A DNA stretch of 64,000 nt from the NCBI GenBank assembly GCA_001189195.1, contig LFCQ01000002.1, positions 4,997-68,996 on the forward strand, given 5' to 3'. Each line of letters opens with the position of its first letter. Within the stretch, counting starts at the first letter, position 1. The position numbers were made by a program, and so were the translations under genes. This stretch comes from Parcubacteria bacterium C7867-007. GTDB taxonomy: Bacteria > Patescibacteriota > Minisyncoccia > Phycocordibacterales > Phycocordibacteraceae. Of the stretch, positions 6,262 through 62,435 are shown in pieces. The notes beneath the pieces are model-generated. The model worked only from the letters and a program-made list of their open reading frames with translations. It had not been told where the DNA came from and did no database searches.

Positions 6262-7394
6262 CCAAGTGCTTCGATACCAGGAAGTGTATCCTTTGCGAGA
6301 AAGTCGAGCATTGCACCACCACCTGTTGAGATAAAAGAGAATCGGTCACTTAGACCAAGTTTCTCTACTGCAGCAACCGTGTCACCTCCACCCAAGATGG
6401 AATATGCATTAGACTGCGCAACTGCTTTCGCAAGTCCCTCTGTCGCATCCACAAAACCTTTCTCATAGTTGCCCAAGGGACCATTCCAAAGAATGGTCTT
6501 CGCGTTTGCTGTCAGCTTAGCGAGTGCCGCTACAGTCTTGGGACCATCATCGAGTATCGCTTCATCTTCAGGAACCTCATTAATGTCCTCGGCTTCTCCA
6601 CTACTGCGTGTTGAGCCCAAAGGAGCAGTAACTTCATCAATAGGAAGCATTAAGCGCGGATTGGTCATGAGCATACGTATCTCGCGATCATCTGCATCTG
6701 AAGACAGAAGTGATGTTCCAACCGTCTTACCACTTACGCGCATAAAGTCATTTGCGAGCGCTCCACCAACAAACACACGGTCATACCGTTCAAGCAATCG
6801 AACAAGCACCGGTTCCTTTGTACTAAACTTTGCACCACCAATGATTGCCACTGAGGGAGATGCAGGGCTGAGTGCCTTGGTTAGATGTTTCACTTCTTCT
6901 TCCACCAATAATCCTGCATATGAAGGGAGAAGTTCAGGAACACCCACCACAGAAGCATGTTCACGATGACACACATCAAATGCATCCTCCACAAACACGT
7001 CTGCTAGTTCTGCGAGTGCCGTAGCGAACTTTGAATCATTCTTTGTCTCACCTGCGTTACGTCGCAAATTCTCAAGCATCAACACATCTCCGGCATTCAT
7101 TGCACGGACGGCCGCACGCGCCTCTGGTCCTGTAGAAGAAGGACAGAAGGTAATTCGTGGAATAAATGCTTTCATTGCCTCACACACAGGAGCAAGTGTT
7201 TCTGTACCCTTCTCACCTAAGTGACCAATTAGAATTACGCGTGCATGACGTGAGCGCAAGTATTCAATAGTTGGGAGTGCACTTCTCAATCTAAAAGTGT
7301 TCGCCACCTTTCCATCTGCAATAGGGACATTGAGTGATGCGCGCACTAGTACTGGAATATTTGTTAGCTCGGGAATATCACGGACGCTTCTCAT
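6258..7394 (-). CDS. pgk: phosphoglycerate kinase
   Basis: Conserved PGK N-terminus (VLVRASLNVP, IGHLG) and a C-terminal nucleotide-binding domain; likely start is the internal Met at 7394. Confidence 0.9.
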   Translation of the reverse strand: MRSVRDIPELTNIPVLVRASLNVPIADGKVANTFRLRSALPTIEYLRSRHARVILIGHLGEKGTETLAPVCEAMKAFIPRITFCPSSTGPEARAAVRAMNAGDVLMLENLRRNAGETKNDSKFATALAELADVFVEDAFDVCHREHASVVGVPELLPSYAGLLVEEEVKHLTKALSPASPSVAIIGGAKFSTKEPVLVRLLERYDRVFVGGALANDFMRVSGKTVGTSLLSSDADDREIRMLMTNPRLMLPIDEVTAPLGSTRSSGEAEDINEVPEDEAILDDGPKTVAALAKLTANAKTILWNGPLGNYEKGFVDATEGLAKAVAQSNAYSILGGGDTVAAVEKLGLSDRFSFISTGGGAMLDFLAKDTLPGIEALG

Positions 7395-13065: not shown

Positions 13066-14145
13066 TCAGACGGTCTTTCTTGGGATACCTATATAGGTAA
13101 GGAGATCGTCATAGGAGAGACCTTCAACTCGTGCAACTTCTTCATTGAGGTATGCCATTGCTTCACCAAAGGGAGTATCTTGCTGATCTATATCTCCTTC
13201 AAAGTACCTGAACTCTTTACCAATCTCTGCCTTCAGGCTTTCAGGTTCAATACCATCGAGTTCGGCCTGAAAGCGTTCTTTACGCTTCTGCGCGAAGAAT
13301 GGCTGAAACGTTATGGTGCCAAGAAGTCTCTTTCTATACTCTTCTTCTCTACCATCGACGGTTCCCGTGCGAATTGCTTCAACAATGTCACTGTTATCTT
13401 CGATAGCAATCTGCCTACCACTCATCAGTAGCTTCTCAGGTCCATCCATCCCAAAGTCAGCAAGATCAGCCAGTGCAAGAAAACGAGTAGTGAGTGGTGT
13501 TTCTCTGGTGAGCAGCTTTTGAGTCACCCCTTCCTCTGCACTAAAACTTGGAATTGTTACGTTGATGTCTTCAATATCCTTATCAGGATCAATAGTGAAT
13601 ATAGGATCCTTCCCCGCTTTGATAAGAGCGTTGTTTGCAGCTTCCTTTACAACACTAATACGTGCTGCACTTCGTACTTCGCCTTCTCCAATCTTTCGCT
13701 TACGAATACCATCTGCTTCATAAAACACATGCTCAACATCATGTCCTCCTGCTGCAATAACCGCAGCCGCTTTCTCTGCAGCTGATATGCGACCAGGTTC
13801 AAACGCATTGGTGGCATCAATCAGTCGCTCAACTCGTGATGCTACCAATGCACTGTGTTCCCTATTATGAAATGCTAGTTTTACATCCTGATTCTCTGGA
13901 TTCCCATACTTGTTTTCCACAAGATCCAGAAGAATGTCTCGGCTAATCTCACCAACCTTCTCGATACGTGCGTCTCCTTCCAATCCTTCTAGCACTCCTC
14001 CGGCAAATGATTCCGTTATCTTTTCATCAATAGCTTTGGTGAGGGTTTCAATATCACGCTTCTGACGCATATCAGGGTCCTCCAAATACGAGGGTATTGG
14101 TTCCGCAGAACGGATAGGTTCTCTGCTGAGGAGTCGTTCAAACAT
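13066..14145 (-). CDS. hypothetical protein (possible HD-like phosphohydrolase)
   Basis: 359-aa acidic protein with HNREHSAL...GGHDVEH His/Asp motifs; no confident family assignment. Confidence 0.4.
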   Translation of the reverse strand: MFERLLSREPIRSAEPIPSYLEDPDMRQKRDIETLTKAIDEKITESFAGGVLEGLEGDARIEKVGEISRDILLDLVENKYGNPENQDVKLAFHNREHSALVASRVERLIDATNAFEPGRISAAEKAAAVIAAGGHDVEHVFYEADGIRKRKIGEGEVRSAARISVVKEAANNALIKAGKDPIFTIDPDKDIEDINVTIPSFSAEEGVTQKLLTRETPLTTRFLALADLADFGMDGPEKLLMSGRQIAIEDNSDIVEAIRTGTVDGREEEYRKRLLGTITFQPFFAQKRKERFQAELDGIEPESLKAEIGKEFRYFEGDIDQQDTPFGEAMAYLNEEVARVEGLSYDDLLTYIGIPRKTV

Positions 14146-14180
14146 GGCCTGATGGTATCACAATAGGATTCATAGGGTAT

Positions 14181-14210
14181 TGGCAGTCTGGGACGATGTT
14201 TGAACCTTTA
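14181..14210 (+). repeat. tRNA-3'-end-like direct repeat, type A (TGGCAGTCTGGGACGATGTTTGAACCTTTAT)
   Basis: Member of the 11-copy, same-orientation family; 36 bp upstream of the start of the 13066..14145 gene. Confidence 0.8.
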
Positions 14211-14216
14211 TATTAG

Positions 14217-14513
14217 TTACAACACAAAGAATGCTCCCAGAATTCCTAGAATGAGTGCCGTCAGGGAAATTAGATTTTGTCCTACTTTGCTCTTTACCAA
14301 AACCACGTCACCATTCTTAGATTTCATAGTCAGGCGCGGATTCATCGCTACAGATCCTAAGAAAACAAAGTACAGCACGTAACCAAACAAGAAGGGAAGT
14401 AACAGTCCAGAAGTCACGCTGTGCTTAATAAGAAAATAATACGGAAGTAATCCAACCCCAAAAATGATAAGTACCCAGCCTGCAATTTTATTCCACGAAT
14501 AGTTCGAATTCAT
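14217..14513 (-). CDS. small three-TM membrane protein (cassette gene)
   Basis: 98 aa with three hydrophobic helices; bracketed by repeats at 14181 and 14573. Confidence 0.45.
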   Translation of the reverse strand: MNSNYSWNKIAGWVLIIFGVGLLPYYFLIKHSVTSGLLLPFLFGYVLYFVFLGSVAMNPRLTMKSKNGDVVLVKSKVGQNLISLTALILGILGAFFVL

Positions 14514-14572
14514 ACCTGAAGTTAAGCACGTTCACTGGTCTTCAAAATTTAGAGGGTGGATAAATGAGTGCT

Positions 14573-14599
14573 GGCAGACTAGGGATCGAACCTAAATCT
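14573..14599 (+). repeat. tRNA-3'-end-like direct repeat, type B (TGGCAGACTAGGGATCGAACCTAAATCT)
   Basis: Minus-strand sense AGATTTAGGTTCGATCCCTAGTCTGCCA reads as T-stem, TTCGATC T-loop and acceptor 3' strand; overlaps the pilC stop codon; no matching 5' half anywhere, so it is a tRNA fragment. Confidence 0.8.
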
Positions 14600-15806
14600 C
14601 ACTCGAGAGCGAGTAGATTGGTGCGATCATGGCAAGTGCAAACACACCCACGAATGCACCAATGAAGAGCATGAGAATCGGTTCAATAATAGTAGAGAGG
14701 TCTTTGGTACGATCCTCAACGTCTACTTCATAGTACTCAGCAACCTGGCCGAGCATGTCTGACACCTTTCCAGTCTCCTCTCCCACTGCAATCATGTCGG
14801 TGAAAAGAATCGGGTAGAGCTTTGGGTATGAAAGGAATGTTGCAGAAAGAGGTTCACCTTTTTTAACACGATCAGATGCTTCTACGAGCACTCGACCAAA
14901 GATGTTATCACCCACCACCTCTGACGTGATTTGAATTGCAGAGAGCATTTCAACACCTGAGGAAAGTAGAGATGAAAGAGTACGTGCTGCACGTGCTGCC
15001 ATCGTCTCACGAGTGAGTTCACCAATCACTGGAATACGTAGTGCAATTGCGAGCAATAGAGCGCTTCCCACCTTGGTGCGTATGAATGACATAAAGCCAC
15101 CAATAACCACAATGAATCCAACAACCACAAGAATCACGTTGTTAACCACAAAATCAGACATATCAATGATGACTCGGGTTGCTAGGGGTAGCTCGCTGCC
15201 AAATGATTCGAAGGTACTGGCAAGGGTTGGCACCACAAACATGAGCATGAGTACACCAATAATAGCGATTGCAACAAGAATGATGGAGGGATAGATCATC
15301 GCTCCCTTAACTTTCTTGGTGAGTTGCTCGGAACGATCCATCTGACGTGCAACCACTTTCAACGAATCAGCCAACTTTCCAGACTCTTCACCTGCCTTGG
15401 TCATCGCAATGAACAGTGGAGAGAATACCTTAGGGAACTGCGCAAGACCTTCATGGAAGGAGAGCCCAGATTTCACTGATGTTTCAAGTGCTGTGGTGAC
15501 TTTCTGAAGATACTTGTTGTTTGATTGACGTTCAATAACAGAGAGTGCACGTGAAAGGGTGAGGCCTGCTGAAAGCATTGCTGAGAGATTCTTGGTGAAT
15601 GTAATGCGCTGTTCATTCTTGATGTGACCACCACCAAATTGAATATTTCCTAGTGAGGAGAGACCTCCTCCCTTTGCTTCTTCAACGGTAATAACACTCT
15701 CCCCTGCTTTCTCAATTTCCTCGTATACGGCAAATCGTGTCTGCGCTTCAATGATGCGCTTTGATTGCATCCCATCAGCCTGCTTAACAAGGACCTGAAA
15801 TTTCAT
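14592..15806 (-). CDS. pilC: type IV pilus assembly platform protein PilC (GspF family)
   Basis: Two GspF-type repeats, three TM segments, 404 aa, directly downstream of pilB. Confidence 0.85.
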   Translation of the reverse strand: MKFQVLVKQADGMQSKRIIEAQTRFAVYEEIEKAGESVITVEEAKGGGLSSLGNIQFGGGHIKNEQRITFTKNLSAMLSAGLTLSRALSVIERQSNNKYLQKVTTALETSVKSGLSFHEGLAQFPKVFSPLFIAMTKAGEESGKLADSLKVVARQMDRSEQLTKKVKGAMIYPSIILVAIAIIGVLMLMFVVPTLASTFESFGSELPLATRVIIDMSDFVVNNVILVVVGFIVVIGGFMSFIRTKVGSALLLAIALRIPVIGELTRETMAARAARTLSSLLSSGVEMLSAIQITSEVVGDNIFGRVLVEASDRVKKGEPLSATFLSYPKLYPILFTDMIAVGEETGKVSDMLGQVAEYYEVDVEDRTKDLSTIIEPILMLFIGAFVGVFALAMIAPIYSLSSEI

Positions 15807-15833: not shown

Positions 15834-17585
15834 CTATTCAGAAATAACACGTAGAACTTCTTCCAAAGAAGTGACACCTCGTGCTGCTTTATACAAACCA
15901 TCTTCAAGCATGTTGAGCATTCCTTCCTTGCGTGCCTGTTCTTCAATAGCATCAGGTGCTGCATTGTGAATAATGAGATCGCGAATAGCAGAAGACACGG
16001 TGAGTACCTCATGGATACCGATACGACTCTTGTATCCATCCTCACATTCTGCCGATGCTTTGGGATGGAAGAATGGAATCTGATCAATACCCGTTCCCTT
16101 TGGCACTAGTTTCTCTTCAATAAGTGCGCTGAGTGCTGATTCAAACTTATCCTTAGGAGCAATCTTTGCACGTGCTGCAGCGTCAGGAGTATAGGCTTCC
16201 TTGTCATCACAAAGGCGGCGTACGAGGCGCTGTCCCACCACAAGGCGTAGGGTGGAAACAAGGAGGAAGGGCTCAACACCCATATCCATAAGGCGAGGAA
16301 TGGCACCTGCTGCTGAGTTAGTGTGGATGGTTGAAAGCACCACGTGTCCGGTGAGTGCTGCGTTAATCGCAAGCGACGCTGTTTCTTTGTCGCGGATCTC
16401 TCCCACCATGATGATGTTCGGGTCCTGACGAAGAAGTGCACGGAGCCCGTCAGCGAAACTGAAACCAATTGCAGGGTTCACCTGTGTTTGATTAACACGC
16501 TTCATCTGATACTCGATTGGATCTTCAATCGTGGAGATGTTTACATCTGGTTGGTTAAGAATATCCAGGATCGTATACAACGTTGTTGTCTTTCCAGAAC
16601 CGGTTGGACCAGATACGAGAATGATTCCTGTTGTCGTCTTCATCGCTCCATGAATACGCTCGAGTGTTTCACCATGGAAACCAAGTGACTCAAGACTAAA
16701 ACCTTCTCCTGTTTCGCGAAGCAAACGCATAACGATCTTTTCACCGTAGTACGTAGGGAGCAGTGACACACGGAACGATACTTTATCGGCATCTGTTTCC
16801 ATTTTGAAACGTCCATCTTGTGGAAGGCGCTTTTCATCAAGCTTAAGGTTTGCAAGCACCTTGATACGCGCAGTGATACCGGATGTTGCTTGCTTTGGCA
16901 GTGTCATCGCGTCATGAAGTGTTCCATCGATGCGATAGCGTACCAACACTTCCATCTCCATCGGTTCAATGTGGATATCTGATGCACCTTGAATGATTGC
17001 GTGACGAAGCAGCGTATCCACAATACGTACGATAGGCAAATCTTCTGCCATCTTCTTGAGTTCGTCACCAGACTTCTCTTCACCATCTGCTTCTCGCACC
17101 AGCGTTAGCTTTCCTGCTTCAGTGGTTATGAGATCCCCAAACTCTTCCTTAAGAGACTTCTGATACTGCATCAAGGAGTGCTTGATGGAATCATCATCGG
17201 TGAGGCGGGGGAGAATCTTCAGGCCTGTCTTCTTTCGTACCGAGTCGATTGCAACAAGGTCTTCAGTATCAAGCATCGCCACCTCCAAATCCTGCAGATT
17301 CCTTCGGAACGCAATGATGTTGTGGGTGCGTGCAATGGGTTCAGGAATGAGCGTAAGTATTTCAAGTGGAATCTTAAGCTCTTTAAGATTCACGAAAGGA
17401 ATACCCAGCACGTATGCTTTGATACGCCGAAGTGCATCACTAGTGAGTGCACCTTGTGATACGAGAATGTCCCCAAGCGACTGCTTTCGCTCCTTTCCTT
17501 CTGCTTCTGCAGCTTCAACTTCCTTCCGTGCAACAAGACCGGAATCAAGAATAAATGCTTTCAATTCGCTTTCAGCAACTTGCAT
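15834..17585 (-). CDS. pilB: type IV pilus assembly ATPase PilB (GspE family)
   Basis: N-terminal GSPII_E_N domain; Walker A GPTGSGKTTTLY; Asp and His boxes; probable start MQVAESE. Confidence 0.85.
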   Translation of the reverse strand: MQVAESELKAFILDSGLVARKEVEAAEAEGKERKQSLGDILVSQGALTSDALRRIKAYVLGIPFVNLKELKIPLEILTLIPEPIARTHNIIAFRRNLQDLEVAMLDTEDLVAIDSVRKKTGLKILPRLTDDDSIKHSLMQYQKSLKEEFGDLITTEAGKLTLVREADGEEKSGDELKKMAEDLPIVRIVDTLLRHAIIQGASDIHIEPMEMEVLVRYRIDGTLHDAMTLPKQATSGITARIKVLANLKLDEKRLPQDGRFKMETDADKVSFRVSLLPTYYGEKIVMRLLRETGEGFSLESLGFHGETLERIHGAMKTTTGIILVSGPTGSGKTTTLYTILDILNQPDVNISTIEDPIEYQMKRVNQTQVNPAIGFSFADGLRALLRQDPNIIMVGEIRDKETASLAINAALTGHVVLSTIHTNSAAGAIPRLMDMGVEPFLLVSTLRLVVGQRLVRRLCDDKEAYTPDAAARAKIAPKDKFESALSALIEEKLVPKGTGIDQIPFFHPKASAECEDGYKSRIGIHEVLTVSSAIRDLIIHNAAPDAIEEQARKEGMLNMLEDGLYKAARGVTSLEEVLRVISE

Positions 17586-17619
17586 AGAGAGTACGTATGT
17601 AAAAGTATAGCGCGCCGCG

Positions 17620-17648
17620 ATGAAATTCGCGGCGCGCATAGTGATGAA
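17620..17648 (-). terminator. GC hairpin between the tetR-like gene and pilB
   Basis: gcgcgccgcg-atgaaatt-cgcggcgcgc perfect 10-bp stem; the trailing U-run on the minus strand is weak. Confidence 0.35.
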
Positions 17649-27932: not shown

Positions 27933-27967
27933 GTTGAGAAGTTGAAGCAGTATGTGACTATGCATAC

Positions 27968-27998
27968 TGCAAGTCTGGGACGATGTTGGGGCCTTTCT
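27968..27998 (+). repeat. tRNA-3'-end-like repeat, type A variant (TGCAAGTCTGGGACGATGTTGGGGCCTTTCT)
   Basis: 28/31 identical to the consensus; first boundary of the tRNA-Pro-proximal array. Confidence 0.75.
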
Positions 27999-28068
27999 CG
28001 TCAAATGGACATAGCTCACGAAAAGGTATACGAATATAAAGAGTACAGAAGAAACACGGAGTCGAAAC

Positions 28069-28557
28069 ATGTTTAAAAAGCTTGGGGTCGACATTGGTGG
28101 GGTTATCATCGCTGAGATCAAAGCTGAAGGCGGCCTTGCTCACATCGATGAAGATCATCTCAATGTACTGCCAGTACAGAGTGTGCTTGAGGCTCTCGCT
28201 CAACTCGAACACACATTTAAAGATCAGCGTTTTTTGATCTCAAAGGCACGGGAAGAAGTTGAGGGTAGCTGCCGGTCTTGGCTGCAGCACTACAAGTTCT
28301 TCGAGACGACAGGTATACCTGAAGCTCACCTGCACTTCTGCAGGGAGCGTTCGGGGAAGAAGGCCATCTGCAGAGAGTTGGGTATCACCCATTTCGTGGA
28401 TGATAAGCTCGAGGTACTCAGTCACCTTGTAGGCCTGGTTCCGAACCTTTTTCTCTTCAACCCTGACGAGAACGAGACACGGCCCTATGCTGAGTATCTT
28501 CCTTCCGTAACCGTTGTTCCTGATTGGCGTTCACTGACACAGCTCCTTCAAGAGTAG
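28069..28557 (+). CDS. hypothetical protein, HAD/5'(3')-deoxyribonucleotidase-like with a degenerate motif I (cassette gene)
   Basis: LGVDIGGVI where DxDGV is expected; C-terminal GITHFVDDKLEVL...LFLFNPDEN resembles NT5C-type HAD phosphatases. Confidence 0.4.
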   Translation: MFKKLGVDIGGVIIAEIKAEGGLAHIDEDHLNVLPVQSVLEALAQLEHTFKDQRFLISKAREEVEGSCRSWLQHYKFFETTGIPEAHLHFCRERSGKKAICRELGITHFVDDKLEVLSHLVGLVPNLFLFNPDENETRPYAEYLPSVTVVPDWRSLTQLLQE

Positions 28558-28560
28558 TAT

Positions 28561-28612
28561 CGCTTCGCTGGTGCTGGCATATTCCAGCACCAGCCACTGC
28601 CATACCTTTTTT
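28561..28612 (+). terminator. double hairpin terminator
   Basis: gctggtgctggcatattccagcaccagc stem, then ccatacctttttt / aggtatggctttttt. Confidence 0.5.
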
Positions 28613-28627
28613 AGGTATGGCTTTTTT

Positions 28628-28660
28628 GCTGGCAGTCTGGGACGATGTTGGAACCTTTCT
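28628..28660 (+). repeat. tRNA-3'-end-like repeat, type A consensus (GCTGGCAGTCTGGGACGATGTTGGAACCTTTCT)
   Basis: Perfect consensus copy, directly between a terminator and a promoter. Confidence 0.8.
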
Positions 28661-28666
28661 CTACAA

Positions 28667-28694
28667 TTGACAATGGTATTTATTTACGTATAAT
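28667..28694 (+). promoter_or_regulatory. sigma70-like promoter (TTGACA, 16 bp spacer, TATAAT)
   Basis: Exact consensus hexamers 7 bp downstream of the repeat; RBS AGGAGG follows. Confidence 0.5.
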
Positions 28695-28737
28695 AGTAAA
28701 TGGGTACTTTTGCCCCTTCATATTAGGAGGTCCTCCA

Positions 28738-29133
28738 GTGGAGACCGCAATCAATTGGAACCAAATGCCGTTCAGGGTTCAGGCTGAAATTAACATCGGC
28801 CTGTACAGCGTGGAGAACACGCAACCCTATTTCGCACGATTGACTGAGCGCCTACAGGCGATCATCGATTCGAGCGAACAGTGGCGTGATTCTGCCGAAA
28901 ACGGAAACGACTGGCACGTTTGCCGGCCCGAGGTGAGAGGGTTCGGCGCGCACTTTAAACTGCTTGTGCCCTTCTCCGAAATCAAGCCGAGCCAACTTCG
29001 AGCTTTGTGCTCGTACGTCAACAGACTCGCTGAACGACTGGCTGAAGAAAACGATCCGAACATTGATACGGTCTACGCTGAAGTCGCCTTCAGACCCTGC
29101 AGCACAATCTTTACTAGCGGAAGTAGCTTGTAG
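28738..29133 (+). CDS. hypothetical protein (cassette gene); GTG start preferred over the longer ATG ORF that begins at 28645
   Basis: AGGAGG lies 8 nt upstream of the GTG at 28738, whereas the ATG at 28645 falls inside the repeat; no family match. Confidence 0.4.
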   Translation: METAINWNQMPFRVQAEINIGLYSVENTQPYFARLTERLQAIIDSSEQWRDSAENGNDWHVCRPEVRGFGAHFKLLVPFSEIKPSQLRALCSYVNRLAERLAEENDPNIDTVYAEVAFRPCSTIFTSGSSL

Positions 29134-29191
29134 AGATTCCTTAATGCGCGCCCTGTCTTTGAAAAACAAGATGGGGCGCTTTCGATATCTG

Positions 29192-29224
29192 GCTGGCAGT
29201 CTGGGACGATGTTGGAACTTTTCT
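29192..29224 (+). repeat. tRNA-3'-end-like repeat, type A (GCTGGCAGTCTGGGACGATGTTGGAACTTTTCT)
   Basis: Near-perfect consensus copy. Confidence 0.8.
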
Positions 29225-29239
29225 AAGCTTAGAATAGAC

Positions 29240-29268
29240 TTGACTTTTATATATATTAATAGTATGGT
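29240..29268 (+). promoter_or_regulatory. sigma70-like promoter (TTGACT, 17 bp spacer, TATGGT)
   Basis: Hexamers with an AT-rich spacer downstream of the repeat and upstream of the 29301 ORF. Confidence 0.4.
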
Positions 29269-29300
29269 AGTTTCAGGTATTGAAACGTATGGGGTAAGAA

Positions 29301-29636
29301 ATGGATTTTGCGATTTTGGACGCCCTCGATGCTCTGAAGGAGCAGGAGAAAGCACGACTACGAGAAGAGCTGCCCAAAAGGCTGGCACACTCTCACTTCG
29401 TCTGGTGGCGCCGGATGCTTCATCTGGCCACCTTCTTCAATCACGACCGCATCGACTGCCGCATCCCACTTTGGGTCCGGCTAGTGCTTGGAAACGAAGA
29501 TGCGTTTCAAGCATACACTGATGCGCTTCAAGAAAGATTCGGCTCATCGTTTCAGGTCTATCTGGGACGTCCAATTGGATACCCCGAGGCCCGATACGAT
29601 CGCGTGTGTATCGAGTTTCAAGCCGCAGCCGCCTGA
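29301..29636 (+). CDS. hypothetical protein (cassette gene)
   Basis: 111-aa ORF with its own promoter-like element and a strong terminator. Confidence 0.45.
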   Translation: MDFAILDALDALKEQEKARLREELPKRLAHSHFVWWRRMLHLATFFNHDRIDCRIPLWVRLVLGNEDAFQAYTDALQERFGSSFQVYLGRPIGYPEARYDRVCIEFQAAAA

Positions 29637-29640
29637 AGAA

Positions 29641-29686
29641 GCCCGGAGGATAATTCCCCGCTGCTCCTCCGGGCGGCTTCTTTTTA
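29641..29686 (+). terminator. Rho-independent terminator
   Basis: gcccggagga...tcctccgggc 10-bp stem followed by ttcttttt. Confidence 0.6.
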
Positions 29687-29713
29687 TAAAAGTTCGATAC
29701 CTTTTGAAAGGGG

Positions 29714-29742
29714 TGGCAGACTAGGGATCGAACCTCAAATCT
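29714..29742 (+). repeat. tRNA-3'-end-like repeat, type B (TGGCAGACTAGGGATCGAACCTCAAATCT) fused 3 bp after the tRNA-Pro 3' end
   Basis: Identical to the 14573 copy except for one inserted C; minus-strand sense is a T-arm plus acceptor fragment of a tRNA different from tRNA-Pro. Confidence 0.8.
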
Positions 29743-29745
29743 TTG

Positions 29746-29816
29746 TCGGGGTGCGGGGAATTGAACCCCGTCTAACTGGTCCCAAACCAGTCGTACTACC
29801 GGTATACGACACCCCG
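29746..29816 (-). tRNA. tRNA-Pro (anticodon GGG)
   Basis: 71 nt: acceptor CGGGGTG/CACCCCG, anticodon loop UUGGGAC, T-loop GGTTCAATTCC. Confidence 0.85.
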
Positions 29817-33352: not shown

Positions 33353-34117
33353 TTAGACAGTTATCGAAAGAGGGCAGTGGTCTGAGCCGTAAACAGTACT
33401 GTGAATCTCAGCTTTCTTCACATTCTTAATGAACTCCTTGGACACAAAAAAGTAATCAATACGCCATCCTACGTTCCGTTCACGTGCACGAGTGAGAGTA
33501 TCCCAGTATGTATATGCCTCAGCTTGCTGTGGGTGAAAGTGTCTAAAGGTATCTATATATCCTGCCTCAATAACCTCATCAAGCCACTTACGTTCAATTT
33601 CAAGAAAACCCGTTGTTTTCTCATTTTCCTTTGGCCGAGCCAGGTCAATAGGGAAGTGTGCAGTGTTTACATCCCCACAGAACACAACGGGCTTGGTTTT
33701 CCGTAACTCCTCACAGAATGCAAGAAATGCCTCGTAGTACCGTAATTTAAAGTCCAAGCGCTCTGGCCCTCGTCCTCCATTGGGGAAGTAGATGTTTAGG
33801 AGCCAGAAATCATCATATTCTGCGCCAATTAATCGGCCCTCATCATCAAATTCCTTTATTCCCATACCATATATGACGGAGAGTGGCTCAATACGTGAGT
33901 ATATTGCTACGCCGCTATAGCCCTTCTTTATCTTGCAGGGGGAAAAGAATGCCGAAAAACCCCCTAGATTTAACATGTCCTCTGGTAACTGATCTGGTTC
34001 TGCTTTGATCTCCTGGAAGCAGAATATATCTGGCTTAGTTCCTTTTAAAAAAGCTTCCCAGTAGCCGTTGCGGTGAACTGCACGCAACCCATTTACGTTC
34101 CAGGAGACAATCTTCAT
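33353..34117 (-). CDS. xth: exodeoxyribonuclease III
   Basis: MKIVSWNVNGLRA N-terminus; DxN/E, GDxN and SDH catalytic motifs. Confidence 0.9.
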   Translation of the reverse strand: MKIVSWNVNGLRAVHRNGYWEAFLKGTKPDIFCFQEIKAEPDQLPEDMLNLGGFSAFFSPCKIKKGYSGVAIYSRIEPLSVIYGMGIKEFDDEGRLIGAEYDDFWLLNIYFPNGGRGPERLDFKLRYYEAFLAFCEELRKTKPVVFCGDVNTAHFPIDLARPKENEKTTGFLEIERKWLDEVIEAGYIDTFRHFHPQQAEAYTYWDTLTRARERNVGWRIDYFFVSKEFIKNVKKAEIHSTVYGSDHCPLSITV

Positions 34118-34189
34118 TGCGAGTATTGTACGCTACCTCAACATAAAACTGCACCATCTTTTAGCAGTTATCAGCTATACTCTGTGTAC

Positions 34190-36487
34190 ATGGCCGAGCA
34201 AGAGCTACTAAACTTAATTGCCGTTCGAAGAGCAAGTGGTGTTAATGATACCGACATACGCACGGAGCTAACCTCAAGAGGTTGGGCTGCTCAAGATATA
34301 AATGGAGCACTTGCAATTCATACGATGCAAACATCAGGACATAAGTTTGCAGGTACTAGTTCATACGCAGTAGTGAGGACTGGTGTTCCTTCAAAAGGAG
34401 GTGTTTCCTTCTTTCATCTATTCGTACTCTTTATATTAATAATTTCTGCACCAGGTGCTTATGGGTTAGTTACCCAACTAATTGTTCCCGCAGCGAAAGG
34501 TCAACCGGTTGCGGTAAAGGATTCACTAAAAGGGTATGAACTTCTCCGTGATGTTCCATCTTTGATTCCTGTAGACACATCAGGCATTCTTCCGTCAGCC
34601 AAAAGAGATGTTTCTCCTACAGTTGCAGTTGCGCCAAAAACAACTTCAAGTAGCAACTCTGGTGGTTCAACAAACACACCCGCTCCTGCAAGTACTCCCA
34701 CAGAATCCATTGCTTCGACTGCCGATAAAGGGGTGCCTGTTATAAAGTTCAATTCAACTAGTAGAAATGTATATGCGGGTCGTTTTGTAACATTTGATTG
34801 GAGTGCATCAAACGCTGATTCTTGTACTGCAGAAGGATTTGGTACCGACGGAAAAACAGAAGGGTCAGCACGTGTACGTATTAATGTCGGAGGAATATAC
34901 CGAGTTACGTGTACCGGAAAGGGAGGTAGCGCTAGCAAGATAATTACCATTACATTGCGTACCGATGTGCCGCCCGTACCAGTTGAACCTGCACCGACAC
35001 CCACTCCAACGCCCACTCCAACGCCCACTCCAACGCCCACTCCAACGCCTACTCCAACACCTCAGCCAACACCCACCCCGACTCCAACCCCAACACCGAC
35101 TCCAACACCGACTCCTCCTTCACCCCCATCACCTCCACCTGTTCTTAATCCATCCCCGCCAGGCTCGTATCCTGTCTATTCAGGGTGTCCAGCGCCATCT
35201 TCTTCGTATTCTCGTGTTGTGTACGTTGATCCTGTGAATGGTCTAGACACTGGTGATGGTTCACTAGCAAGACCATACAAGAGTCTCTCGAACTCGTTCG
35301 GTGCAGGTCTCATACGACCAGGTGACCATGTTGTTGCGATGGCTGGTAATCACGGATCGCTTCAACTACTTGGTGGCTTCGGTTCAGGAACGTGGACATG
35401 GTTAGACTTCCAGCCAGGCTCTCTAATGAGCGGCACAAACATAAACAACATTCGCAATCTATTGATTACGAAAATGACCGTTAATAATCCTACAACCGGC
35501 ACAGCCGCAATGGTCTACTTCGCCGGAGGTTCTAATCTTGTTATCGCTGACAGTCTTATCTACGGGGGTACTACACGTGACTCATCAGGCTGGAGCGCAA
35601 CCACTTGGAAGAATGTCAAAAGCGGTGCACAGTTAGACGGACTCAGTTGTGTTTCGTTCCTGCGCAACACCATTACCAATGTTCGTTCAGGTCTTGGAAC
35701 CACTGGAAACAGTGTTAAAGGATTGATTCAGGATAATCGTGTTAAGAACTTTTCTGCAGATGGTATTGATCCCAACGGTTCAGATATCATCGTGTACAAC
35801 AACTCAATCATTGATGAATATGTTGACCAGTCTGAAGGTGACCCAAACCACGATGATGGTATACAAACCTTCACGTCACCAGGAAGACCGTTCAGGAACG
35901 TTGTGATTGACCACAACTGGGTTCAGGAGACCACTGATCCAAGTCGACCGCTCATTGGTGGCATGCAGGGTATTTCATCTTTCGATGGTGCGGGTATGAG
36001 TAACATTCGTATCACGAACAACGTAGTTATCACCTCAGTGTGGCATGGTATGTCATGGTATGGGATAACAAACAGCGTCATCGATCGTAATACGGTTGTG
36101 AACTACTCAGGTAATGGTCGTAACACGTGGCTAATGCTTAATACCGGCAAAGAAGGTGAGGATGCGATCAACAATACGGTTTCTAATAACGTTGCAGTTG
36201 ATATGGTGCTCATTGAAAATGACGGTAACTCATTCACAAATAATATAAAGGTTTCTAATCCATCTGCTGCATTTACTGCATTCAATCCAGCAAGTAACAC
36301 GTATGATCTTTCGCCTAAGGCGGGCGGTATACTTAGCGGAACAGGTGCAGGTGCGACCCTTACTCGCGTTAGTCAGGTGGCATATGCAGAAGCACCGGTA
36401 TATCCTGGTCAACCCCGCACTCAGTTAGCCTCTGTGTTCGCTGCATTCGAATCCTTCCTCAACTGGCTTCAAAATATCTTTAGGTAG
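34190..36487 (+). CDS. large surface protein with TM anchor, PT-repeat linker and right-handed parallel beta-helix domain
   Basis: TM helix near residue 80; (PT)n linker; repeated N/G/T/V-rich about 22-aa units characteristic of pectin-lyase-fold beta-helix; start moved to MAEQELL to avoid overlap with the divergent xth. Confidence 0.55.
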   Translation: MAEQELLNLIAVRRASGVNDTDIRTELTSRGWAAQDINGALAIHTMQTSGHKFAGTSSYAVVRTGVPSKGGVSFFHLFVLFILIISAPGAYGLVTQLIVPAAKGQPVAVKDSLKGYELLRDVPSLIPVDTSGILPSAKRDVSPTVAVAPKTTSSSNSGGSTNTPAPASTPTESIASTADKGVPVIKFNSTSRNVYAGRFVTFDWSASNADSCTAEGFGTDGKTEGSARVRINVGGIYRVTCTGKGGSASKIITITLRTDVPPVPVEPAPTPTPTPTPTPTPTPTPTPTPTPQPTPTPTPTPTPTPTPTPPSPPSPPPVLNPSPPGSYPVYSGCPAPSSSYSRVVYVDPVNGLDTGDGSLARPYKSLSNSFGAGLIRPGDHVVAMAGNHGSLQLLGGFGSGTWTWLDFQPGSLMSGTNINNIRNLLITKMTVNNPTTGTAAMVYFAGGSNLVIADSLIYGGTTRDSSGWSATTWKNVKSGAQLDGLSCVSFLRNTITNVRSGLGTTGNSVKGLIQDNRVKNFSADGIDPNGSDIIVYNNSIIDEYVDQSEGDPNHDDGIQTFTSPGRPFRNVVIDHNWVQETTDPSRPLIGGMQGISSFDGAGMSNIRITNNVVITSVWHGMSWYGITNSVIDRNTVVNYSGNGRNTWLMLNTGKEGEDAINNTVSNNVAVDMVLIENDGNSFTNNIKVSNPSAAFTAFNPASNTYDLSPKAGGILSGTGAGATLTRVSQVAYAEAPVYPGQPRTQLASVFAAFESFLNWLQNIFR
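34988..35140 (+). repeat. in-frame tandem ACnCCn repeats encoding the PTPTPT linker
   Basis: Direct 6-bp repeats of acgccc/acaccg encoding about 50 residues of alternating Pro-Thr. Confidence 0.8.
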
Positions 36488-37411
36488 TTAGTTTTGGCGA
36501 CGAGAATGAAACTTCTTGTGGACCTCACGTAAGTGCGCATCAGTAACGTGAGTGTAGATCTGAGTTGTGGTGATGGATGCATGACCAAGCATCTGCTGTA
36601 CAGAGCGAATATCAGCACCATTGTTCAGAAGATCCGTAGCGAATGAGTGACGCATCACGTGAGGCGTCACTTTCTTTGTAATGCCGGCTTTAGCGGCATA
36701 GATTTTAATCATGCGCTCAACCGATCGGGGGGTGAGACGTGTGGGCACACGTTTAGACGTCTTCTCAGGATCCTTGCTTGGCATGGGCGGAATATTCACA
36801 AAAAGTGCCTCATCCATGTCTTTTCGTGCTTTAAGATACGCTCGAACGGCTGTTTTTGCTTCATCAGAAAGGAATACCACACGAACTTTTTCTCCTTTAC
36901 CTCTAATAGGGAAGTCATCTCTACTTAGATCGAGATCAGTATTGAGGGAACAAAGCTCTGAAACACGAAGTCCTGTTGAGAAGAGAAGTTCGAGTATGGC
37001 CTTGTCTCTGAGGGACTTCTCATCGGTTCCGACTGCTGAAGCAAGTAAACGATTGAGTTCGGTCGGGGAAATAAGGTCCAAGTGGCGTTCTGGTACCTTT
37101 GCAAGCTCAATTCGCTCAGGAGAAAGGCCATCCATACCTCGTTTTCGAAGGAATTTAAGGAATGCTCGTAGAGCAATGAGGTAATAATTCTGGGTACGGC
37201 GCTTCATGGTGCCAGAAACACCCTGTTGGCGGTTTAGCCAGAGCCGAAATTCACGTACCTTTTCCTCCGTTATGTCAGAAACCTCTTTAATAGCCATTTG
37301 ATCAAAGAAACGGCTTAGGTAGTGGTCGTAGTTCTCAATAGTCTTCACTGCACGACCACGCTCAATCTCAGTGTGCTCTAAAAACTGCCGTTTCCAGTCC
37401 TCAATATTCAT
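36488..37411 (-). CDS. tyrosine site-specific recombinase, XerC/XerD family
   Basis: SAM-like N-domain; catalytic R..HxxR..Y context (HVMRHSFAT, LGHASITTTQIYTHV). Confidence 0.85.
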   Translation of the reverse strand: MNIEDWKRQFLEHTEIERGRAVKTIENYDHYLSRFFDQMAIKEVSDITEEKVREFRLWLNRQQGVSGTMKRRTQNYYLIALRAFLKFLRKRGMDGLSPERIELAKVPERHLDLISPTELNRLLASAVGTDEKSLRDKAILELLFSTGLRVSELCSLNTDLDLSRDDFPIRGKGEKVRVVFLSDEAKTAVRAYLKARKDMDEALFVNIPPMPSKDPEKTSKRVPTRLTPRSVERMIKIYAAKAGITKKVTPHVMRHSFATDLLNNGADIRSVQQMLGHASITTTQIYTHVTDAHLREVHKKFHSRRQN

Positions 37412-56654: not shown

Positions 56655-56685
56655 AAAGAAGAAAACCGCCTTAGGCGGTTTTCTC
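56655..56685. terminator. bidirectional hairpin aaaaccgcc-tta-ggcggtttt
   Basis: 9-bp stem with flanking A and T runs between convergent genes; overlaps the yidC stop. Confidence 0.5.
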
Positions 56686-57408
56686 TTCTTCTAGCGTTAT
56701 TTGTGGAAGTTTTCGTATCAACAGCTCCTGAGCAAGAGTGAACAAGCTTGTTGTTATGAAGTACAACGCAATTGCTCCTGAAGAGATATAGGCGACACCA
56801 CCAATCAGAATAGGGAGCATGTAGCGCATCTGGATGGCCATGGAGTGGTTAAACCGCTCTGATGTGGTTGGTTCTGTACTAAGCTTGGGAATCGGCATTG
56901 CATACTTTGCCTGAAGAAACTGCGTCACTGCAGCCACAATAGCGAGAATTACGTTGTGACTTGTAAGAGTGAAGAACCCAAGGAACAGGAAGGACACCGT
57001 CTCTGGAACCGGTACAAATGAATACAAGATACTAGTATCAACACCATTGAGTTCACGTACGAATACGAGATACAGCGCGATAACCACAGGAAGCTGAATG
57101 AGAATCGCAAGAATGCTTGAGAACGGGTTGATCTTGTACTTCTTGTAGAGTGCAAACACTTCTTTTGCCTGCGTTTCCTTATCATCCTTATATTTCTCCT
57201 GAAGTGCCTTGAATTTAGGCTGTATCACCTGCATGGCACGAGAGGTGCGCAGCGCAGAGACGGTAAGGGGAAGGATAATAAGCTTCACAATGATCGTTAC
57301 GATGATCACCGCGAGACCAATATCACCCCCGGGAAGCACATCTACCAGTGCGATAAGAAGGTTATATATAGGAACAAACAAGAACGTATTAAATAGGTCG
57401 CCGATCAT
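56671..57408 (-). CDS. yidC: membrane protein insertase YidC (short Gram-positive type)
   Basis: Five TM helices; conserved PLTVSALRTSRAMQVIQPK... Confidence 0.85.
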   Translation of the reverse strand: MIGDLFNTFLFVPIYNLLIALVDVLPGGDIGLAVIIVTIIVKLIILPLTVSALRTSRAMQVIQPKFKALQEKYKDDKETQAKEVFALYKKYKINPFSSILAILIQLPVVIALYLVFVRELNGVDTSILYSFVPVPETVSFLFLGFFTLTSHNVILAIVAAVTQFLQAKYAMPIPKLSTEPTTSERFNHSMAIQMRYMLPILIGGVAYISSGAIALYFITTSLFTLAQELLIRKLPQITLEEEKTA

Positions 57409-57743
57409 ATAGTGTACATAGTACCGGAAGGGAACGATTGCTGTAAGAGTGCAGTAAGTTCGGTCTCCATTTCAGTGAAGGGAAGTTCAGCAGCTCCAGG
57501 GCGGGCGTGGATGATAATCACCCGACCAGAAACACACCACGGCTTCAAAATGGCTTTGATGCGGCGTTTAAGGAGGTGCCGATCTACTGCTTTCTTCGCT
57601 ATTTTCTTTGAAACAACCACCGCACCCCCTGAAATAGGGGCTTTGAGTATATAGGCCATAGAAAAATACCGGCTTGCGGTTCTTCGCAGGCCGGTATTCT
57701 GCTCAAAACCGGCCCTAGGGAGACGGTTAGCGCGGGAAAGCAT
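57405..57743 (-). CDS. rnpA: ribonuclease P protein component
   Basis: Basic 112-aa protein in the conserved rpmH-rnpA-yidC synteny. Confidence 0.85.
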   Translation of the reverse strand: MLSRANRLPRAGFEQNTGLRRTASRYFSMAYILKAPISGGAVVVSKKIAKKAVDRHLLKRRIKAILKPWCVSGRVIIIHARPGAAELPFTEMETELTALLQQSFPSGTMYTI

Positions 57744-57895
57744 TAGCGTACTTTCTTTGAAACAGTAAGGCTGGCACGGCCCTTACGGCGGCGTGCGAGC
57801 AATACACGGCGACCGGTAGGGGTAGCTGAACGGGCACGGAAACCGTGGGTTCGTGCGCGCTTGCGCTTCTTTGGTTGATAGGTGCGCTTAGGCAT
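57743..57895 (-). CDS. rpmH: 50S ribosomal protein L34
   Basis: Translates as [22 protein letters not shown]...; its stop overlaps the rnpA start (TAATG); not in the supplied ORF table. Confidence 0.85.
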
Positions 57896-57992
57896 AAGAA
57901 GTTATACACAGGATACTAACAGGTTGCGTCCTGGCGTGCAAGAAATTGCCTATCTTTGGAGTTATCCACAGAGGTGTATACAATGAGCTCAC
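57896..57992. promoter_or_regulatory. dnaA upstream region with DnaA boxes (TTATACACA at 57902, TTATCCACA at 57962)
   Basis: Perfect and one-mismatch DnaA boxes 20-90 bp upstream of the dnaA start. Confidence 0.6.
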
Positions 57993-59342: not shown

Positions 59343-59583
59343 TTGTGAAGAAAGTCTGGGGATTCCCTGTGGATAGCCTGGAGATAAATAGAGGAAGAAC
59401 TATGGGGAGAACTATCTAATAGCGGTAGAGTTTTCCCCACTGTTTCAACCGGCCTCCTTCTATCCACAGTCGTTGTACTCCACTTTCACACAGCTTGAGT
59501 GAAACCTGCGTAAGGGTTTCAGAGCGTATATACTAGAGATATCGCTCTTTCCCCAGTATCCACACCCCTAATAATAAAGAATC
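59343..59583. other. candidate oriC: at least three DnaA boxes plus an AT-rich unwinding tract between dnaA and dnaN
   Basis: CTATCCACA (59460), GTATCCACA (59556), reverse TGTGGATAG (59368); AT-rich aataataaagaatcatgattatcaatatag at the dnaN start. Confidence 0.6.
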
Positions 59584-61196: not shown

Positions 61197-61229
61197 ACTG
61201 GCAGACTGAATTGAAGTTGGAACCTTTCT
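61197..61229 (+). repeat. tRNA-3'-end-like repeat, type A variant (CTGGCAGACTGAATTGAAGTTGGAACCTTTCT)
   Basis: Both ends conserved, central part diverged. Confidence 0.7.
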
Positions 61230-61275
61230 GCAACATGTGGTAGTTTTCGTCCAGAATCGGTAATCGGAGGCTATT

Positions 61276-61551
61276 ATGGCACAACGCAAGAAGAAGTTAC
61301 TCGCTGAAAAAGTGGTTCCGGCGTATTCGGCCCAGTTGTACTCTTCGACTGAAGGAAGACAATTCTTCCCTGACATTCTGCAGGATGCTTTCGGCGAGAA
61401 AACCATCACCGGCTTTCATCGCTATGAACGTGTTCTTGGTGCACTCATTCCTATGGAGGCCCTATTAATGCTCGCTGGGTGCGACCAAGAGATTGATGAG
61501 GGTATGAAGCTTCGTATTAAAAACGCAGCTCGAAACCTCCTTTATTCATAG
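61276..61551 (+). CDS. hypothetical protein (cassette gene)
   Basis: 91 aa, preceded by a GGAGG RBS and followed by a terminator. Confidence 0.45.
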   Translation: MAQRKKKLLAEKVVPAYSAQLYSSTEGRQFFPDILQDAFGEKTITGFHRYERVLGALIPMEALLMLAGCDQEIDEGMKLRIKNAARNLLYS

Positions 61552-61574
61552 CCATGTCTCGATCAAGTTTTTTA

Positions 61575-61611
61575 AACCGCCCACTCATCCGAGTGAGCGG
61601 TTTCTTTTTAT
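61575..61611 (+). terminator. Rho-independent terminator
   Basis: ccgcccactc-atcc-gagtgagcgg stem followed by tttcttttta. Confidence 0.55.
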
Positions 61612-61615
61612 TGTT

Positions 61616-61645
61616 AACAGCTTGGGACGATGTTGGAACCGTTAT
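61616..61645 (+). repeat. tRNA-3'-end-like repeat, type A variant (AACAGCTTGGGACGATGTTGGAACCGTTAT)
   Basis: The core GGGACGATGTTGGAACC is perfect. Confidence 0.75.
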
Positions 61646-61647
61646 AT

Positions 61648-61938
61648 TCAACTAAGTACCAAAAGAATCTCACTCACCCCTATGCCGATACAGATAGATC
61701 CCAAACCGATTAATACGTAGGATGAACTTTTAAAGCCTGGAATCAGTACCAGTATCTGACCAAGTTTAAATCGCTCGGACCAGATCTGAGTTAAGCCTAA
61801 AAAGACGGAGAATATACCCAAAACTCCAAATAGTAAGCCACCTTGAACGGATTGTTCATAGGGTCCATATATCGTTGCGGCTACTCCACATAAAAAACAA
61901 AAGGCGGAAACTATTGCAACGATTGTGACGCGGTTCAT
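61648..61938 (-). CDS. three-TM small membrane protein (cassette gene)
   Basis: 96 aa; starts 38 bp from the next repeat. Confidence 0.45.
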   Translation of the reverse strand: MNRVTIVAIVSAFCFLCGVAATIYGPYEQSVQGGLLFGVLGIFSVFLGLTQIWSERFKLGQILVLIPGFKSSSYVLIGLGSICIGIGVSEILLVLS

Positions 61939-61973
61939 CGCTCTACTGTATCAGCAAATCTTAAGATACTTTT

Positions 61974-62002
61974 GCTGGCAGTCTGGGACGATGATGGAAC
62001 CA
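61974..62002 (+). repeat. tRNA-3'-end-like repeat, type A (GCTGGCAGTCTGGGACGATGATGGAACCA)
   Basis: 28/29 identical to the consensus. Confidence 0.8.
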
Positions 62003-62046
62003 AATTAAAATCTTGGGCGACTACGTTTTAGTAGCCGCCCGAGTGA

Positions 62047-62349
62047 TTAGGTTATCGTTGTGGCTCGATTCGCCGCAACAAACTTTAGAAACTTCTTCCT
62101 TCTTGCAGGTGGCACCCCTTTCGGTGTTGCTACGATACAGCCCCACTTTTGGCGACTCAGTACGTGAAAGGGGCGGTATTGAGATTCTGGAAAGGCTTGG
62201 TTGTAGATCTTCCGTAAAACCGAGTCGCTTGGAAGAGTCAGGTTGAAGATGTTGTCTTTACGACGCAAACTCCAGCGGGAAACATTTTTCTTATCTCTGT
62301 CCCAATGCAACCAGCCATATTTCATCTCAAGAATAGGTTCAATAGCCAT
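62047..62349 (-). CDS. hypothetical basic protein (cassette gene); preferred over the antisense ORF 62013..62246
   Basis: 100 aa with a more protein-like composition than the Leu/Ser/Arg-rich overlapping plus-strand ORF. Confidence 0.35.
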   Translation of the reverse strand: MAIEPILEMKYGWLHWDRDKKNVSRWSLRRKDNIFNLTLPSDSVLRKIYNQAFPESQYRPFHVLSRQKWGCIVATPKGVPPARRKKFLKFVAANRATTIT

Positions 62350-62405
62350 GTATGCATCTCCTCTTTCTACAGAAGACTATTATTCATATGTTGAGTTTGT
62401 GCAAG

Positions 62406-62435
62406 CTGAAAGACTAGCGATCGAACTTTTTAATC
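62406..62435 (+). repeat. degenerate tRNA-3'-end-like repeat, type B-like (CTGAAAGACTAGCGATCGAACTTTTTAATC)
   Basis: AGACTAGcGATCGAAC matches the type B core (T-loop GATCGAAC retained); last boundary, 20 bp upstream of the DciA-like gene. Confidence 0.6.

Follow-up and report, generated by a model that had tools for sequence, protein, structure and literature searches.

A one-gene cassette behind pilC in Parcubacteria bacterium C7867-007, and an apparently undescribed integron-like cassette system in Patescibacteria

Organization of the locus downstream of pilC

In Parcubacteria bacterium C7867-007 the gene pilC is followed by a small gene enclosed between two short repeats, denominated here B (upstream) and A (downstream). 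The repeats are found on the minus strand of a 64,000-nucleotide stretch of contig LFCQ01000002.1, which was analysed as a whole and is called the window below. Positions 14180-14594 of the window are likely to be a one-cassette array, belonging to a site-specific, trans-acting gene-cassette system widespread in Patescibacteria. All the elements that a first, sequence-only reading of this DNA had described at the locus (pilC, B, a 98-aa gene with three membrane segments, A and the start of the next gene) were found again, a few bases at most from the positions it had given.

In the list of open reading frames (ORFs) of the window pilB (17639..15834) precedes pilC (15806..14592), which encodes a 404-aa protein of the T2SSF family (PF00482 in orthologues) ending in ...SLSSEI. 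The TAG stop codon of pilC (14594..14592) abuts the B repeat, a 23-nt sequence located at 14592..14570 (GGTTCGATCCCTAGTCTGCCAGC). B had been described as overlapping both the stop and the last three codons of the gene. The overlap with the stop stands, as it involves the last base of TAG, and the whole TAG if the weak extension tA-GG is counted; the last three codons fall outside the conserved repeat. Read up to CCAG, B can be regarded as a docking site similar to the attI of integrons (14571..14592; GGTTCGATCCCTAGTCTGCCAG). The single cassette, 391 bp long, extends from the first base past the CCAG of B to the end of its own A site (14570..14180). The 98-aa protein encoded by its cargo ORF (14513..14217) has three hydrophobic segments, belongs to no Pfam family and is identical to AB202_02855 of Parcubacteria bacterium C7867-007. 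The A repeat, 27 nt long, is found at 14206..14180 (GGTTCAAACATCGTCCCAGACTGCCAA). According to the consensus of 192 sites, the A site, attC-like in being borne by the cassette, includes a 5' extension and reads ATAAA-GGTTCAAACATCGTCCCAGACTGCCAA (14211..14180); it is the terminal site of the one-cassette array. The next gene (14145..13066) starts 34 nt past the A repeat, and encodes a 359-aa protein with a weak, sub-threshold Pfam match to a phosphodiesterase family. No recognisable site was found at the far side of this gene, and its status as a cassette is not supported. pilB, pilC, the 98-aa ORF and the 359-aa ORF are all on the minus strand. Ten cassette and neighbour ORFs of the window were compared to Pfam, and no family was hit above threshold.

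The region 13900-14800 contains no promoter-like site for the 98-aa cassette, and the gene is therefore probably transcribed by read-through from pilC.

Allowing up to 3 mismatches, two B and four A copies are found in the window; 100 shuffles gave no match. Looser matching raises the numbers to three for B-like and seven for A copies. All lie on the minus strand, in three groups, which bears out the claim, made from the letters alone, of three loci with the same modular layout.

The A and B sites

The term tRNA-like, by which the repeats had been called, is literally right for B. This corresponds to the T-arm, the 3' acceptor strand and the discriminator base of tRNA-Gln(UUG), that is, to the last 22-25 bp of the gene. 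In 11 loci B is recognized by ARAGORN as the genuine 3' end of a tRNA-Gln(UUG) gene, followed in each by an array of A sites. The tRNA-Gln gene in these loci reads TGGGAGA...CTAGG-TTCGATC-CCTAG-TCTCCCA-G, and the cassette boundary, set right after CCAG, coincides with the end of the gene (the discriminator base). The other B sites are orphan copies of 23-25 nt, as after pilC. ARAGORN and Rfam found no tRNA at 14570-14600, where B consists of T-arm and 3' acceptor strand only. Rfam searches of the whole window at the gathering threshold, and of the 14100-14700 interval at E values up to 10, returned four true tRNAs and one noise match. The possibility that the repeats are a known RNA family was ruled out on these grounds.

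The consensus derived from 192 distinct A sites is A.AAA-GGTTCCAACATCGTCCCAGAC(t)GCCAG-CAAt, and that derived from 43 B sites is tA-GGTTCGATCCCTAGTCT(g/c)CCAG-CAAt. The full A site measures 32-36 bp (A.AAA-GGTTCCAACATCGTCCCAGACtGCCAG), and conservation exceeds 90% at most of the 27 positions of the repeat across about 30 genomes. A and B have GGTTC in common on their left side and CT(G/C)CCAG-CAA on their right, and two single-base gaps suffice to align the 3' two-thirds of A with B. At the right boundary of the cassette A has in common with the tRNA only the CT(G/C)CCAG-CAA core and a loosely similar upstream part. No significant single-strand fold of A was predicted on either strand (z-scores -0.30 and -0.55), and nothing significant was predicted for B besides the 5-bp T-arm. 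Neither consensus exhibits dyad symmetry. In structure A is therefore neither attC-like nor dif-like.

Distribution of the arrays

An 18-mer of the A repeat was searched in one representative genome per species (596 Gb). The search retrieved 76 loci, 61 of which come from about 30 Patescibacteria assemblies, labelled as Parcubacteria/Paceibacterota, Kaiserbacteria, Nomurabacteria and Saccharibacteria. The other 15 are single matches in unrelated phyla, and about 17 such matches are expected by chance. Searching metagenome contigs for the exact 27-mer added 44 loci with the same layout. Genomes and metagenomes together provide about 140 loci (individual loci are denoted by L and a number), hosting 192 A sites, 43 B sites and 183 delimited cassettes. 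With tolerant matching a recurrent layout is observed: one B is followed by one to seven A sites in the same orientation, spaced 0.2-2 kb, and B heads 43 of 66 arrays. Genes adjacent to the arrays are housekeeping genes, encoding DnaX, Dus, AlaRS, M23 peptidase, HI0933-like oxidoreductase, PilC and DnaN.

B-headed arrays of A sites appear to make up an integron-like cassette system, hosted by about 30 Patescibacteria genomes labelled as several lineages and hitherto undescribed. The searchable full-text literature, queried also with the repeat sequence itself, yielded no description of such a cassette system. The words cassette, tRNA, integrase and recombinase do not occur in a recent survey on horizontal transfer among Patescibacteria.

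Viral contigs gave no match to the 3' 18-mer. The 5' 18-mer (GGTTCCAACATCGTCCCA) had 34 matches (L086-L119), all in one homologous high-GC phage coding sequence. These were considered as possible phage attP sites and rejected, as sequences diverge directly after the 18-mer: a chance match had been multiplied by homology, and no phage attP has therefore been found.

Mobility and turnover of the cassettes

The pilC-side cassette is 92.8% identical, over 390 of 391 nt, to a cassette of Parcubacteria bacterium C7867-008 (L018 6842-7232), which is located within a tRNA-Gln array, behind an A and not a B site. Homology begins exactly at the junction between CCAG and the C that follows, and ends in the A site; flanks are unrelated on both sides. 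The housekeeping sequences flanking the tRNA-Pro locus in the window and in C7867-008 are 80% and 73% identical. At about 93% identity, the cassette is therefore more alike than the genomes that host it. Four more pairs of cassettes from different genomes are similarly homologous from the boundary onwards, and homology ceases where the cassette's own A site ends. At the tRNA-Pro locus the window features three cassettes and C7867-008 (L006) five, none of which in common.

Orthologous pilC loci have the same order, NusA, regulator, PilB, PilC, variable small genes, CarboxypepD_reg protein, and in all relatives the stretch from pilC to the CarboxypepD_reg gene is variable. In the window, L082 and L083 B is at, or adjoins, the pilC stop; L078 has a degenerate B, and L084 has none. 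Where B is retained at the stop of PilC orthologues, which are 80-86% identical, unrelated cassettes lie behind it. B at this site is therefore old and stable, and the cassettes turn over. A conserved gene order in relatives devoid of repeats would have spoken against insertion; the pilC relatives carry instead unrelated cassettes. Orthologues were also aligned in view of a possible change of the PilC end upon insertion. The terminal residues APIYSLSS[EQAT]I(S) are conserved with or without B, and the C-terminus is therefore unaltered.

A peculiar arrangement was noted in L004 (about 6285-6600, minus strand), where three tandem tRNA-Gln 3' regions are found around a run of N, with a different sequence after each. 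The copies resemble an assembly of alternative first cassettes, and may indicate heterogeneity within the population.

Position of the crossover

In shared cassettes the variable bases to the left of CCAG stay with the upstream unit, and all that lies past CCAG travels with the downstream cassette. An unusual CCAC end goes with the same downstream cassette, located after B in the window and after A in C7867-008. Terminal and internal A sites also differ. The final G is found in 21 of 32 terminal versus 169 of 183 internal sites (Fisher p = 1.6e-4), and the site is followed by CAA in 8/32 versus 108/183 cases (Fisher p = 4.5e-4). Such deviation fits what is expected if the last base of the array and those following it come from the original docking site. 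The terminal site of the pilC array conforms to this pattern: it ends in ...CTGCCAA, having A and not the usual G as last base, and is followed by TAC and not by CAA. Altogether junctions, the CCAC end and terminal sites place the exchange at the G that ends CT(G/C)CCAG, or just to its left. A and B both contain this 7-bp sequence, which would make a fitting overlap region for a tyrosine recombinase. The junction data lend good support to site-specific recombination in trans.

Cassette content and expression

The 183 cassettes have a median length of 525 bp (range 182-2237 bp). The longest ORF occupies on average about 70% of the cassette, and usually only one gene is present. The cargo is overall a collection of miscellaneous accessory or orphan genes; larger cassettes encode common accessory enzymes, among which a short-chain dehydrogenase, an aldo-keto reductase, a methyltransferase, NUDIX and HD-domain proteins. 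No mobility or recombinase genes were found in the 183 cassettes. Genes for NUDIX hydrolases are recurrent in array loci, with 13 members in 10 of them; one lies directly behind B (L027 3649-4077), and another is located between pilB and pilC (L084 4509-4952).

The ORF is oriented as the sites in 99 cassettes and opposite to them in 84 (about 46%). Orientation is thus nearly random, which argues against a role of the repeats as promoters or RNA signals. The sequence-only reading had taken the repeats to mark insertion points of one-gene units rather than promoters, and mixed orientation, the unit shared with C7867-008 and cassette turnover all uphold this view. Co-oriented genes start about 26 nt (median) from the cassette boundary, and about 9 nt separate their stop from the A site. 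A spacing of about 36 bp between repeat and downstream start, which had drawn attention, does recur in the window, but is unremarkable when set against this median. Genes in the opposite orientation have about 50-60 nt of non-coding DNA at each end. A crude consensus census of all cassettes gave, for the two orientations, promoters in 12% versus 17% and terminators in 4% versus 15%. The census separated the orientations poorly, and only the lengths of the non-coding ends clearly differ.

B sites at stop codons

Orphan B copies are located on a stop codon in 22 of 41 cases, versus 0.3% of random positions. A copy was counted if a co-oriented frame of at least 150 codons had its stop end between -1 and +2 nt relative to the base at which B begins. 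At least 10 different genes have B at the stop, among which those encoding AlaRS, M23 peptidase, HI0933-like protein, DnaN and PilC. Loci of this type are L005, L007, L017, L027, L030, L038, L039, L043, L048, L055, L063, L065, L066, L073, L082, L083 and window position 14592. The extended consensus of B itself starts with TAG. Some other orphan copies are found 5-10 nt past tRNA-Pro or tRNA-Lys genes. The pilC case is one example of a general rule, by which the stop codon of a transcription unit is where B docks. At a new site the left half of B cannot arise from the mere insertion of a cassette circle.

Candidate recombinase

A recombinase was searched in the about 140 loci by clustering ORFs, running Pfam on recurrent families, scanning all six-frame ORFs for motifs, and comparing them by phmmer with the Xer protein as query. 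Searches covered tyrosine recombinases, and the serine-recombinase motif was included in the motif scans. The only tyrosine recombinase family found is represented by a 307-aa Xer-type protein of the window (36488..37411, minus strand; PF00589 and PF02899), the sole recombinase noticed there, and by its orthologues in L011, L133 and L138. The protein scores 240.7 bits against the XerA-type model of NCBIfam (cut-off 220), and fails the integron-integrase models TIGR02249 (137.5 bits, cut-off 265) and NF011946 (82 bits, cut-off 435). That this enzyme is the recombinase of the cassette system is a guess, possible rather than probable.

In L011 (3476-5142), L133 (4799-6471) and L138 (418-5565) an array ends by the stop codon of the Xer gene, in convergent orientation. 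In the corresponding region of the window (33353-37411) the same position is occupied by a gene for an 804-aa beta-helix protein, containing a Pro/Thr-rich tandem repeat (34970-35137).

Other arrays in the window

The second array of the window (29816..27967, minus strand) includes a tRNA-Pro gene (29816..29745), an orphan B (29734..29712) and three cassettes, closed by A sites at 29219..29193, 28655..28629 and 27993..27967. All three cassette genes are on the plus strand, opposite to the sites. Terminator-like sites were found in all three cassettes and promoter-like sites in two. A perfect sigma-70 consensus promoter (TTGACA-16 nt-TATAAT, 28667-28694, plus strand) directly adjoins an A site; a cassette gene in the opposite orientation would be under its control. 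Another promoter-like site, at 29240-29268, matches the consensus at 9 of 12 positions.

The third array (62427..61198, minus strand) features a degenerate B (62427..62405) and three cassettes closed by A sites at 62001..61975, 61640..61614 and 61224..61198. It is located directly beyond dnaN (59584-60684), in the neighbourhood of the replication origin (56671-60684), which includes yidC (56671-57408, minus strand), dnaA (57993-59342) and two small minus-strand ORFs. GC skew, computed in order to relate the orientation of the sites to the direction of replication, was uninformative, and no clear origin signal emerged. An ORF of 83 aa with no Pfam match (62455-62706, plus strand) is interposed between a PBP-like gene and the degenerate B, and starts about 28 nt from the latter. 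The two are divergent, and this B is therefore not on a stop codon.

Interpretation

In the mechanism that we propose, a trans-acting site-specific recombinase would exchange strands within the core shared by A and B, between CT(G/C)CCA and G-CAA, which is the 3' end of the tRNA gene. B and resident A sites would take up cassettes, presumably in the form of circles, and recombination between two sites would release them. Among possible enzymes, the single Xer-type tyrosine recombinase of the genome would be the best candidate. Transcription reading through from the upstream gene, here pilC, may serve co-oriented cassettes. The longer non-coding ends of those in opposite orientation agree with a promoter and a terminator of their own. 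On balance, and with reserve, we favour a wider interpretation. Patescibacteria would host an undescribed cassette-capture system parallel to integrons, built from the end of tRNA-Gln (B) and a derived site (A), and run in trans by a housekeeping-type recombinase, possibly Xer. The system would dock precisely on the stops of essential genes, and shuttle one-gene modules between species of these ultra-small and competence-dependent bacteria.

Several observations weigh against exchange of cassettes by such a recombinase. Neither circular cassettes nor polymorphism between filled and empty sites within one population were observed; L001 and L085, contigs of the same strain, are identical to the window and reveal no variation within the population. 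Contig ends are mildly enriched near the sites (19/82, or 23%, versus about 14% expected), a weak signal. No recombinase linked to the arrays was found in the about 140 loci, and one Xer-type family only was met. The adjacency of Xer gene and array in L011, L133 and L138 concerns one orthologous site, and is not independent linkage; the candidacy of Xer comes solely from its being the only tyrosine recombinase seen. A lacks the dyad or hairpin expected of classical tyrosine-recombinase core sites or of attC. Lastly, the model gives no account of why orphan B copies land exactly on stop codons.

The arrays could alternatively be the decayed remains of successive integrase-carrying elements inserted at a tRNA gene, be they prophages, tycheposon-like elements, integrative and conjugative elements (ICE) or cis-mobilizable elements (CIME), the repeats being leftover attL and attR sites. 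B is indeed a 3' tRNA fragment, and arrays start at tRNA-Gln. Moreover, L120 (7774-7945) has a complete tRNA-Gln and, 44 nt past it, a partial copy of 55 nt, which covers the tRNA from D-loop to 3' end and precedes an A-site array; this duplication, longer than the usual B, is a classical scar of integrase insertion. Accretion in tandem at tRNA genes is also known for tycheposons (bioRxiv 10.1101/2020.12.28.424599). Decay is nonetheless quite improbable, given that an integrase or a remnant of it is found in 0 of 183 units, which usually carry one gene and have a median length of 525 bp. A, in addition, differs systematically from B and is more than 90% conserved at most of its 27 positions in about 30 genomes, unlike decaying att scars.

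Natural transformation and RecA-dependent homologous recombination could also replace genes between conserved flanks, the A repeats serving as short homology arms in the manner of the Neisseria minimal mobile elements. The genome encodes the type IV pilus genes pilB and pilC, and the interval between pilC and the CarboxypepD_reg gene is variable even in L084, which lacks B. Saccharibacteria are described as naturally competent (PMC10633639). The same cassette is joined, however, to either A or B, whose shared sequence at the junction, only about 10-12 nt, is too short for homologous recombination. This process would need neither a strongly conserved sequence of 27-36 nt nor strictly uniform orientation, and arrays begin with B. 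Transformation as the mechanism that builds the arrays is thus very improbable.

It is still less credible that the repeats are signals acting at the RNA level (tRNA-like processing, stability, termination), or operator or promoter motifs serving resident genes. B contains the T-arm hairpin and is found directly past stop codons, and RNase Z cuts pre-tRNAs at a position matching the cassette boundary. Signals of this kind leave unexplained the movement of whole cassettes between loci and genomes, and are at odds with the 99:84 orientation of the genes, the lack of predicted structure in A and of any Rfam match. The view that cassettes are an illusion, created by selfish intergenic repeats such as repetitive extragenic palindromes (REP), miniature inverted-repeat transposable elements (MITE) or uptake-like sequences spread among resident genes, draws on repeats that are short, intergenic and multi-copy, but is extremely improbable, as copies are confined to few arrays, in one orientation and with B at the head, homology between genomes involves gene and A site as a unit, content is wholly replaced between conserved flanks, and no orthologous gene pairs differing only by an A repeat were seen. 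Ten copies clustered in 64 kb are both too few and too clustered for an uptake sequence. The A site had also been considered as an uptake sequence or as a sigma-54 or extracytoplasmic function (ECF) promoter, and both were dropped because of clustering, uniform orientation and poor fit to the consensus.

Patescibacteria, or CPR (candidate phyla radiation), make up a large share of bacterial diversity and have tiny genomes. To our knowledge few mobile elements are recognised in this group, the acquisition of accessory genes is poorly understood, and few genetic tools are available. A conserved cassette system defined by its sequence, for which about 30 genomes and hundreds of cassettes are at hand, would provide a concrete mechanism for the flexible gene pool of these bacteria, and the A site a simple sequence tag by which this pool may be harvested from metagenomes. 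The A and B sites, short and defined, could also find use as a genetic tool in CPR bacteria. The chance that new machinery underlies the arrays is substantial.

Comparison with known systems

In Neisseria, minimal mobile elements are different small gene modules found in relatives at one position between conserved genes. They move by homologous recombination in the conserved flanks, and no dedicated boundary sites are involved. The cassettes described here are similar in being swapped at one position, and differ in having boundary sites.

Elements that exploit Xer, such as the integrative mobile elements exploiting Xer (IMEX, for example the CTX and TLC phages) and the pdif modules of Acinetobacter plasmids, are similarly recombinase-less modules delimited by short sites. 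Sites of about 28 bp are acted upon in trans by the housekeeping Xer proteins, and tandem arrays form at the site (PMC11705084). Unlike these, A and B lack the dif layout of two inverted arms of about 11 bp and a centre of 6-8 bp, as judged against dif sites in general. The arrays described here occupy multiple loci, including the surroundings of dnaA and dnaN, and not dif at the terminus. The pdif sites alternate in orientation, whereas all the sites here have the same one. Should the enzyme be the host Xer, exploitation of Xer would extend from terminus-linked phages and plasmid modules to chromosomal, multi-locus arrays.

Tycheposons of Prochlorococcus and ICE/CIME elements also target the 3' end of tRNA genes, leave the tRNA intact and grow by successive insertion. 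Partial tRNA copies are scattered in tycheposon islands (bioRxiv 10.1101/2020.12.28.424599). Tycheposons differ in carrying their own tyrosine recombinase, and often replication genes, over several kb, whereas the units described here, about 0.5 kb long, are ten times smaller. The internal site here is in addition distinct and highly conserved, and is not a plain tRNA repeat.

In layout and function the system resembles integrons, both the sedentary chromosomal ones and the clusters of attC sites lacking integron-integrases (CALIN). In both systems short cassettes, mostly of one gene, form a co-oriented array behind one docking site. Each has a recombination site of its own at one end, and the final few bases of every site are part of the cassette that follows. 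The cargo is made of orphan or accessory genes, and cassette content differs between close relatives. In contrast to integrons, no IntI adjoins the arrays, and the sole tyrosine recombinase does not satisfy the integron-integrase models. A is a conserved sequence of 27-36 nt devoid of hairpin, whereas attC is structured and variable in sequence. Docking occurs on the end of a tRNA gene, or on an orphan copy of it at a stop codon, and several arrays coexist in one genome. Cassettes, finally, are not mainly co-oriented and promoterless, as denoted by the 99:84 ratio and by the promoter- and terminator-like sites of the second array. Because IntI is not adjacent, structured attC sites are lacking and cassettes are not predominantly co-oriented and promoterless, the system is not an integron. 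It would be a second, independent solution to the problem that integrons solve, and may help in asking what cassette systems essentially need.

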